64,000 bases of DNA, from assembly GCA_963693365.1 (NCBI GenBank), contig CAVNZM010000011.1, forward strand, positions 4,224,639 to 4,288,638, in the 5' to 3' direction. This DNA is from Amoebidium appalachense. Lineage: Eukaryota; Protista; Ichthyosporea. Both the position numbers and the translations under genes were made by a program. A model generated the notes under the pieces. It was not told the origin of the DNA. It worked only from the letters and a program-made list of their open reading frames with translations, and did not search any database. Position 1 is the stretch's first letter; every line of letters begins with the position of its first letter. Positions 6,301-9,300 of the stretch are shown one piece after another.

Positions 6301-9300
6301 ATTTCGTTCTTGATTTTATCCGAAGGAGGATAGCGAGATGAATGTTGGAAATGACATACGAGGAAAGAAAGAAAGATGGGGGGAGGGGGAGGGGGAGAGA
6401 AGGGGGGTAGGGGGGGGGGGGGGGGGGAGGGGAGAGGGGGGGGGGGGGGGGGGGGGGGGGGGGGGGGGGGGGGTGGAGAGGGAGAGAGTGTGGTCATTCA
6501 TGTCCCGCATACATACTACCACTAAGGCACACCTGTCAGATCCTAAGCCATCCCCCCCCCCCCCCCCCCCCCCCTCAACAGTCACACTAGTGCACATGGC
6601 ATATAAGGCAAACCAGGCAGCACAGAACTAACCCCCCAACCAAACACCAACCATAACAGGCTCTGAGTGCTTTGATAAGTCTCCCAGACCGCGTCGCATC
6701 CGCCCTCCACGGAGTCCCTCCAACCCCCCTGACATCCCCTGCCTACCCAACAAAACTCACCGATTCGATATGTGCCGCGGGTGAGAAAAAAGCCGGAGAG
6801 GGGCTTATGTTAGTTTGTGGTCATATGATTGGAAGGCTATTTTTGGCTGGCCATGGTGGTGTGGTGGGGAGATTACTGAGGGAGAGAGCTGGAAGAGGGG
6901 ATCCATCGGTGGTGGGTGTTATCCCCCCCCCCTCCCCCTCCTCCTCCTCCTCCTCCCCCCCCTCCCCCCCCTCTTATCCCCCTTCACCTCCCTGCTTAGC
7001 CCTGCCCACCTTATCCCCCCCCCCCCCCTCCTCCCCTCCCCCCTATCCCGTCCCCCATTTCCATCCCTCGATCACTTCGAGGGCACACCAACCCCCCCCC
7101 CCCCCCCCCTCCTCTCCTCCCTTTTCCGCCCTTCCAAAAAATGGAAGGGGGGGGGGGGTAGGAAATATTCAAAGACCCCCCCCCCCCCCCACACACACAC
7201 ACACACACACACGCACACACCTTTCCTTTCACGTAAGGGGGCCTCTTGTGCTTCACGCTTGCTCGGTGTGTCTGTTCTTGTGGTTTGTTTAGTATTCTCT
7301 GTTCGATAGTCATGATTATGATTTACATTCTCGTGCACGAAACAAGCCCCTCCACCCCCACCTCTCTCTCTCTCTCCCTTTCTCCCCCCCCCCCTTCTCC
7401 CCCCCCCTTCTCCAACGTTTCCCCTCTCTCCCCCCTCACACACATTCCGCCCACCTTTCAAAAGAAATCTTATCGCCTGTGTGACCCCCACCTCCCTTCC
7501 TCCTCCCGGGACTTAATTCTTTTCAGCTGGTGTAGTATGTTTAGCCAGGGAAGTATCGACTTAGGTATCGACGGGGGAGCTTCCTAGAAGCCCCGTCTCC
7601 TGAGTTCCTATCTATATTTTTCTTGCTTCTGCTTACTGCTGCAACTAAAACCCCCGGCCTTTCCCACTGCCCTTGCCTGCATAAGCAACCCTGCTCGTCT
7701 CTGATCAAGACGGGTGACCTACTCATGTTCAAGTGAAACAGTATCTGAGTTGGGTTTCGTTAACGAGGGGAATAGGTCGAAACTCGGGTACTGTGGATGA
7801 CGTGGGCCCCCCCTGAGGATGGGCTCTGCTTATTATGCATACTCTTTATGTATGGCTTGCATTCTGCATCGTGTTATCCGTTTGTTCTTGTGTACTTCGT
7901 ACTTTTTGACGCATTCAAACCCCCCCCCCCCCCCCCCCCCCCCCCCCCCCCCCCCCCCACCACCACCACCACCACCACCACCCACCACCACCACCACCTT
8001 CCCTTCCATTCTCGTGAATGCCCGTGAGTGGATGCGCTTGTGTCTACTTTGCATTTTCTGTGCTTGTTTGCATGCAGCTCCATGTACACATTTCTGCCCC
8101 GTAATCTTTGCATTGCATTAGGTTGTTACCTTTCTGACCCCTCCCCCCACCCCCACCCTCCCCCTTCCCCTCCCCCCCCCCCCCCCCCCCCCCCCTCCCC
8201 CCTCCCCACTCCCTGCCTCCCCCTCCCCTCCCTCCTCTGCCCGTGTACACTGTACAGGGTTTTCTATCGGCATCCATCCAACGTGCATCCGATCAAGCGA
8301 TTGAAACCATCATTGACTGCCTTCTGAAGGTACTTTATCTTCCCCCTCCCCCTTCCCTCCCCTCCCCCCTCCCCCCTTTACTGGAACACACACACACATT
8401 CACTCACTCAACCCCCCCCCCCCCCCCCCCCCCCCCCCCTCCCCATCTCCTCGGAGTCGGCGGTCGGGGGGAGGGGGGGGGGGGGGGGGGAGTTCAGAGT
8501 TCTGCTCCATAGTGTGTAAGCAAACTCGAGGCTGTGGCATTTTACTTGTATTTGGGCACCCAACTGTCTGGGTGGACAAAGAGGTGTTAGCTATAGCATG
8601 CACGGGAGAAACCGATGCATGAGTATTCTCTCTCCCTCGCGTGTGTGCGTGTGTGTGCTCGGGCCTCGAGAGGAGACACGGAGCATTGGGAGAAGGAAGG
8701 GGGGGTTGTACTCTTTAAAGGTTTGTATTTATTGGCTGGTTCTCTTTAGACTCTCCTATCCTCTAGCTTATATCCCTCCCTCCCCCCTCCCCCCTCCCCC
8801 CTCCCCCCCCTCCCCTCCCCCCCCTCCCCCCCCCCCCCCCCCCCCCCCCCGCCCCCTCCCGCACCCTCCATATCGGACCCAAAGTTACAAGCAACTTAAC
8901 CTGCTTTATCTCCCCCCCCCCCCCCTCCCCCCCCCCTCCCCCCTTCCCCCCCACCCAGTTGTTCCTCTTCTTCCTCCAAAGACACACACACACACACACA
9001 CACACACAGTCACAAACACCGCACCCCTTCGTTTTTAACTTTTTCACCAACAACTATCACACCCGCAGACGTACACGGAGGACGGCTTTACAAGCTTGCA
9101 CACGGACTCCCGTGCACTGGACCCTCTGATTGGCGGTTGCCTAGCAACCAGTACACGTGCGCGGCACACCCTCACACATACCTGCCTGCTGATGAAGGTT
9201 TACAGCATGGCTGCTGCAGTGGCTATCATGAGGTCTGTGCCGTTTATTCATTTATTTACACCCTTTTTATCTTTTTACATATTTATATTCGTTTTTTTTG

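Follow-up and report, generated by a model that had tools for sequence, protein, structure and literature searches.

A putative rearranged hammerhead ribozyme with a split core in a dispersed, retrozyme-like repeat of Amoebidium appalachense

A dispersed non-coding repeat with C-run tails

The window analyzed here is a 64,000-nt stretch of the genome of the ichthyosporean Amoebidium appalachense. It contains a tRNA-Ser(GCT) gene (17443-17524, + strand), a partial tRNA-like match (52957-53016, - strand), exons for ribosomal protein L17/uL22 (25560-26605, - strand), one of which has its best named relatives in records labelled Ihof, Nk52 and Sphaeroforma arctica and so points to an ichthyosporean host, and what looks like an intact non-LTR element, in which a 1078-aa stop-free frame at 39135-42368 (- strand) matches Pfam RVT_1 (E 6e-28) and ends at a CA repeat, with a further frame upstream at 42322-42834. 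Fragments resembling a decayed relative of this element lie at about 37270-38730 (+ strand). Poly-C/G runs and CA/CT repeats abound both in introns and between genes. Scattered through the window is a high-copy, C-run-flanked repeat family, of which a profile search finds 14 pieces, and none in the reversed window; most pieces are truncated at the 5' end and carry a C run at the other, and certain C runs of the window may be tails of this family.

Copy B of the repeat (50282-50726, - strand) is a complete unit of 445 nt followed by a C run, and is non-coding, its longest ATG frames amounting to 38 aa in sense and 62 aa in antisense. An exact 101-nt repeat of its 3' end lies upstream of the unit (50727-50827, - strand) and makes a partial tandem. 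Copy A (7507-7919, + strand), which represents an A subfamily, is 5'-truncated and ends in CATTCAAA plus a C run; contigs from public sequencing runs cover 7507-7919, and A-type contigs continue upstream of 7507 with other letters. The segment 7507-7670 (+ strand) includes a hairpin (about 7560-7610) that is predicted to be strong, and has no sequence in common with the upstream part of B. A preliminary description had delimited both copies more tightly: A extends from at least as far upstream as 7507, and the B unit runs from 50726 to 50282. The other copies include 5'-truncated B-type copies at 22779-22925 (- strand), 51554-51699 (- strand, with one core letter changed) and 63448-63627 (+ strand), a 5'-truncated copy of a third subfamily at 52066-52187 (- strand), a decayed copy at 33841-33974 (- strand) and the 3' tail of an A-type copy at 11342-11429 (+ strand). 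The family inserts into its own tails, as seen at 63328-63627 (+ strand), where the young copy sits inside the C run of an older one (63328-63430).

Head-to-tail arrangement, which is established for the B type alone, is documented by a joint between 50726 and 50282 that carries a short G run and recurs in each of the four public runs examined (9, 14, 4 and 2 contigs), and one contig of 468 letters contains an internal repeat with a period of 438. Contigs on B range from 5,681 to 15,157 across three public DNA runs (summed contig depths are not copy numbers). None of the 12 partial copies in the window starts at the cut site predicted below. A single contig of run X1 joins 7719 to 7816, so that the arm between the two strands of stem II (see below) is missing; this single case is what would be expected if a copying enzyme had skipped over that stem at its base.

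Partial tandems, 5' truncation and a microsatellite target, all of which the repeat shows, are traits of the non-autonomous derivatives of Naiad and Chlamys. These are Penelope-like elements (PLEs) for which insertion in partial tandem, targeting of microsatellites—(C)n in Chlamys—and non-autonomous head-to-tail derivatives have been described (PMC8557442). That source lists (C)n targets for Chlamys and for none of its 54 Naiad rows, and its main text, by Craig et al., mentions no ichthyosporean. Naiad and Chlamys encode a GIY-YIG domain and a reverse transcriptase, whereas no coding partner of the repeat was found in the window, where none of the 76 frames scanned encodes a PLE protein. The non-LTR frame at 39135-42368 was considered as a helper and rejected, its 3' end having no sequence in common with the repeat. 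Outside the genome, pattern scans gave no match in viral contigs and none in metagenome contigs; a spaced pattern gave four matches in metagenome contigs, which we take to be due to chance because none is homologous and none has a stem III of at least 8 bp.

Fold and core motifs of copies A and B

The preliminary description had proposed that A and B share a folded RNA, and every helix that it named is present. In copy A, these are a closing stem (P1, 7681-7687/7827-7833), a hairpin with a self-complementary loop (P2, 7694-7714), a stem with one bulged U (P3, 7722-7731/7798-7806), a long stem (7738-7750/7782-7794; in B it contains one bulge and one C.A mismatch), a pseudoknot (7716-7721/7773-7778) and a last hairpin (7806-7809/7821-7824). 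Extending P1 inward gives the same energy as forming the last hairpin, and the 5' strand of P1 (7681-7691) can also pair through 7689-7691 with 7821-7823. P3 and the long stem are connected by a k-turn, with its bulged strand following the 5' strand of P3 (7722-7737) and its non-bulged strand preceding the 3' strand (7795-7806). In both copies a 3-nt bulge (AGU at 7732-7734 in A, GUU in B) separates a canonical helix from tandem G.A and A.G pairs, after which comes A.G in A (the three pairs start at 7735-7737) or U.U in B, as claimed earlier. A 3-nt bulge with tandem G.A/A.G pairs, and an arm whose loop pairs back, are also features of known k-turns and of SAM-I riboswitches. The likeness to SAM-I that had been drawn from this fails: the pseudoknot corresponds to a hammerhead stem (see below), Rfam gives no riboswitch match, and the repeat is eukaryotic and lacks the ligand pocket of SAM-I. 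What had been read as a small variable hairpin in the terminal loop does differ between A and B, but is predicted not to fold as a hairpin and is a 10-nt palindrome (7757-7766 in A, with a different palindrome in B).

The two phased full copies, A and B, on which the covariation count is based, are identical at 123 of 153 positions overall and at 68 of 97 within the arm. Among the 50 modelled pairs, 37 are the same; both partners differ in 7 and a single partner in 4, and a further 2 no longer pair in one of the copies. The double changes fall in the pseudoknot (two, one of them at the sixth pair, which is variable across the family), P3 (one), the long stem (three) and a second pseudoknot introduced below (one). 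The closing stem, the first hairpin and the last hairpin are invariant and hence contribute no covariation. In contigs from public runs, 6 of the 17 variants within 7681-7833 disrupt a modelled pair. Folding energies are weak support when taken alone (z = -0.82 for A and -1.99 for B), and in longer sequence context most helices drop in folding probability; thermodynamic folding is blind to pseudoknots and ambiguous in long context. The earlier proposal of a folded RNA module that is under selection and travels with a mobile element is supported.

The second point concerns the identity of this RNA. The preliminary description did not recognize the family and overlooked three motifs in A: CUGAGGA (7813-7819), GAAAC (7779-7783) and GUU (7749-7751). 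Because all three are present, the element reads as a rearranged hammerhead, and of the three guesses made earlier, that of a new ribozyme is right as regards a ribozyme motif and wrong as regards a new class. Block S (7738-7755, + strand) consists of the 5' strand of stem III, the site GUU with H17 at U7751, and a strand of stem I (7752-7755). Block G (7773-7794, + strand) comprises the 3' strand of stem II (7773-7778), G12-A13-A14 (7779-7781) and the 3' strand of stem III (7782-7794), while block C (7807-7833, + strand) comprises the other strand of stem I (7809-7812), CUGAGGA, and the 3' strand of P1 or the competing last hairpin. CUGAnGA lies directly 3' of stem I (7813-7819 in A, 50416-50410 in B); in both copies GAAA stands between stems II and III with A15.1-U16.1, the NUH site is GUU, and stem II is closed by G10.1-C11.1 through a strand that lies upstream. 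Stem I is the second pseudoknot (7752-7754/7810-7812), which had been overlooked and shows a G-C to A-U change. In copy B, G10.1 is 50518, H17 is 50482, G12 is 50450 and C3 is 50416. The complete order of strands is P1-P2-stem II(5')-P3-k-turn-stem III-GUU-stem I-palindrome-stem II(3')-GAAA-stem III-k-turn-P3-stem I-CUGAGGA-P1.

A descriptor in which the order of the three hammerhead strands is left free gives exactly one solution per copy, with the blocks in the order S-G-C; stem I counts 3 bp in A and 4 bp in B, stem III 13 bp in A and 8-9 bp in B, and the best stem II, of 5-6 bp, uses the upstream strand that starts at 7716 in A and 50518 in B. With thresholds chosen after the sequence was seen, the loose descriptor is passed by 32 (A) and 39 (B) of 20,000 dinucleotide shuffles, and one near the observed values by 2 (A) and 1 (B) of 20,000. 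Applied to both strands of the window, the descriptor matches A, B and one weak candidate (36740-36654, stems of 3 and 6 bp) that was set aside as a chance match. A and B agree at each of the 15 core positions, against 123 of 153 positions overall. Absence of variants from the core is not significant taken alone, since 14 of 153 positions are variable and simple arithmetic puts the chance at about 0.24. Rfam assigns no family to the element at gathering score, the only such matches in the window being tRNA; the SAM-I riboswitch and box C/D snoRNA families go unmatched at that score. E-value scans of A and B return nothing above threshold, with sR47 at only 10.5 bits (E 7); the best ribozyme match in A is Hammerhead_1 over stem II and GAAAC, which is weak (E 3; 14.2 bits against 34), and Hammerhead_1 has no match in B. 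Box C/D or U3-like RNA, SAM-I, twister, pistol, hairpin and HDV were dropped, with no Rfam match and no fit by eye to their motifs. The S-G-C order departs from the circular order shared by types I-III and rules out a type I hammerhead. Descent of the core from a hammerhead seems to us very likely. That the predicted ribozyme cuts is, judging from its sequence, probable, and by analogy with known hammerheads the cut would fall after U7751 in A (7751/7752) and after U50482 in B (50482/50481).

A detached strand of the putative stem II, and its apparent counterparts in Naiad elements

The main peculiarity of A and B is that two helices, P1 and P2, are inserted between A9 and G10.1. The 5' strand of stem II (7716-7721 in A, with G10.1 at 7716) thereby sits about 100 nt upstream of CUGAnGA, and the pseudoknot of the preliminary description is this stem II. 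At equal energy P1 can be lengthened inward until a single nucleotide separates it from A9, and P2 ends 1-2 nt before G10.1, so that stacking of P1 and P2 would bring A9 and G10.1 together. Pairing with the upstream strand is stronger than that with the bases following A9 (-6.7 versus -2.2 kcal/mol in A, -8.7 versus -5.4 kcal/mol in B), and the upstream strand is transcribed before its contiguous rival. The stem shows a U-A/C-G change between A and B, and in run X15, which may be of RNA and whose coverage we do not count toward expression, variants at 7720 and 7774 occur at near-equal depth (1419 and 1434, unphased). We consider it likely that the upstream strand provides the catalytic stem II.

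The closest known ribozymes are the type-SGC and type-CSG hammerheads described by Eckert et al. in 2023 (PMC10085705), which like A and B have all core nucleotides, with stems I-III as pseudoknots. In type SGC, the order of blocks is that of A and B, and a helix connects stems I and II at their distal ends, as P3 does here. There are three differences. First, the treatment by Eckert et al. takes CUGAnGA to be followed by stem II within 1-2 nt, insertions of 1-2 nt after A9 being known, and assumes block C to be unbroken, whereas in A and B it is split by two helices. Second, a k-turn links P3 to stem III in A and B, whereas the words "kink" and "k-turn" occur nowhere in the text of that paper. 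Third, those ribozymes were mined from metatranscriptome contigs, and A and B come from a eukaryotic genomic repeat. We did not assign the repeat to type SGC: the S-G-C order is present, yet only weak, G-U-rich pairing follows A9 and the covarying partner lies upstream. Since block C is interrupted, covariance models and descriptors overlook hammerheads of this kind.

Craig et al. reported in 2021 that Naiads lack canonical hammerheads and marked some of their ends as "core" or "half core" (PMC8557442). In passages of their consensus file retrieved by motif search, which cover part of the 54 entries and were parsed by eye with names assigned by file order, the layout of A and B is readable at the 3' ends of eight entries from five animal lineages with unrelated sequence: Naiad_Bfor, Amil, Aacu, Anas, Plae, 4_Dst, Obim and Ovul. 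The layout reads P1-P2-stem II strand-P3-stem III-site-stem I-stem II-GAAA-...-stem I-CUGAUGA-P1. In these passages, a contiguous stem II after A9 is absent from four of the five lineages and measures 2 bp in the fifth. The parses vary in quality, with mismatches in stems I and II in Aacu (coral) and a 2-bp stem I in Bfor. In the two octopus entries, Obim and Ovul, stem III has a k-turn at its foot, oriented opposite to that of A and B, and the tip linkers of the other Naiads inspected are 0-5 nt long and contain no 10-nt palindrome. Different arrangements occur as well in the same file: four nematode ends are plain type CSG with intact cores (File S5), a type for which Eckert et al. had just two sequences (PMC10085705); Naiad_Ppla is plain SGC with a stem II of 3 bp; Lpol and Ptep have the S-G-C order with stem II formed otherwise; and several further entries inspected give no clear parse. 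The layout is absent from the two Chlamys entries examined whole.

Predicted cutting by one unit or by two

How such an RNA would cut was addressed with a coarse geometric model that uses general helix parameters. Stem II stacks on stem III in hammerhead structures. A single nucleotide links the upstream strand of stem II to P3 (9 bp), which leads via the k-turn to an arm of 16 layers, and in the model closure of the core in cis would need 65 A against a best reach of 38 A, or the opening of about seven of the nine P3 pairs. A symmetric swap between two units would close at any arm length and would place the two cores at the midpoints of the rods (18 and 18 layers), at the linkers that hold the palindromes. 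Such a palindrome arises in 142 and 260 of 20,000 shuffled linkers in the two subfamilies; the self-duplexes are predicted at -12.0 and -11.2 kcal/mol, and the palindromes of A and B may be of common descent. As the model finds no closure in cis and 10-nt palindromes are kept in both subfamilies, a swapped double hammerhead is favored.

In this mechanism, the tip of one unit (blocks S and G) would dock on the base of the next (the stem II strand and block C), with the k-turns as corners of the double hammerhead and the palindromes pairing across its middle. Cutting after U7751 or U50482 would release monomers, in which the same stem II—the pseudoknot noted first—would be closed in a geometry unable to cut. 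From what is known of retrozymes, a host RNA ligase would circularize the monomer and a reverse transcriptase of the Naiad/Chlamys type would copy the circle into C runs. The balance tips slightly, in our judgment, toward an element that divides its tandem transcript into single-unit RNAs by self-cleavage when neighboring units swap halves, as a probable retrozyme-like passenger of PLEs. That two units are required for cutting has a little better than an even chance. The strictest version, an obligate domain-swapped double hammerhead with k-turn corners that cuts tandem transcripts and spares monomer circles, is offered tentatively and would fall somewhat short of even odds.

This proposal has precedents, since dimeric hammerheads are known in PLEs and tandem repeats (PMC4209133, PMC7229834). 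The minimal dimeric hammerheads of PLEs cut as multimers, are silent as monomers and have palindromes that help pairing (PMC4209133), which is the logic proposed for the repeat; there a tiny stem III is swapped, whereas the repeat, with its long stem III, would swap stems I and II. The non-LTR retrozymes of animals (PMC7229834; 10.64898/2026.07.22.740005) are, like the repeat, non-coding tandem units, of 150-450 bp with one hammerhead each, and some cut best as dimers, as predicted here. Their hammerheads are of type I and their circular RNA has been demonstrated, whereas the repeat has the S-G-C order and its circular RNA is a prediction. It would thus resemble a non-LTR retrozyme in action and, lacking a type I hammerhead, is not classed as one.

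Other readings are possible for the same data. The split hammerhead may fold and cut within one unit, the k-turn arm returning the strands in cis while P3 or outer stem III opens or the geometry differs from known structures. In the same model, closure in cis fails for Amil, Plae and 4_Dst and works for the octopus and Beroe Naiad arms (two of six cases), and among the type-SGC RNAs found active by Eckert et al. a few have connecting segments of zero length, which look too short to fit the crystal geometry (PMC10085705). However, about seven of nine P3 pairs would have to melt, yet compensating changes preserve P3, the k-turn pairs and outer stem III, which makes cutting within one unit rather unlikely. 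Alternatively, the repeat may be a relic that no longer cuts, its fold being kept for recognition by a reverse transcriptase or an L7Ae/Snu13-type protein. PLE hammerheads are often poor cutters in vitro (PMC4209133), no copy in the window is truncated at the cut site, and the k-turn is of standard type; against this, all catalytic positions are kept in A, B and distant Naiad entries while the flanking stems turn over, and we consider a relic improbable. A third possibility is an ordinary type-SGC hammerhead with block C intact, in which stem II is made by bases lying 2 nt beyond A9 and the role of the upstream strand is only that of an inhibitor. The contiguous pairing has 4 bp in A and 6 bp in B, insertions of the necessary size are known (PMC10085705), and the Naiad entries include one plain SGC and four plain CSG. 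Yet this pairing, half of which is G-U, contains no double change, is missing from four of the five Naiad lineages with the P1/P2 layout and is 3-4.5 kcal/mol weaker than that of the upstream strand, which is transcribed first, so that this possibility is very unlikely. Finally, a chance assembly of motifs in a young repeat without selected structure, for which low folding z-scores and few variable positions might speak, is practically negligible given 1-2 passes in 20,000 shuffles, seven double changes and the same layout in unrelated sequences.

The two-unit split hammerhead would, if confirmed, be a known ribozyme in a new topology, with a split core and a non-circular order of strands as read from its sequence. 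In the published literature searched, in which subscription papers are under-represented, we found no split-core or k-turn hammerhead and no permuted hammerheads in retroelements. If the reading is true, the repeat would be the first element of retrozyme type whose hammerhead is non-circular and split in its core, and the first outside animals and plants in that literature, and the topology would break the stated assumption that block C cannot be interrupted. It would also explain the "missing" ribozyme of Naiads and the too-short linkers of certain type-SGC ribozymes, and it makes a puzzle testable, namely that Naiads are said to lack canonical hammerheads while many of their ends seem to be rearranged ones. 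A ribozyme that needs two units would be a natural sensor of multimers, useful for RNA engineering. For the organism itself, the finding would extend retrozyme-like elements to an ichthyosporean, a unicellular holozoan.
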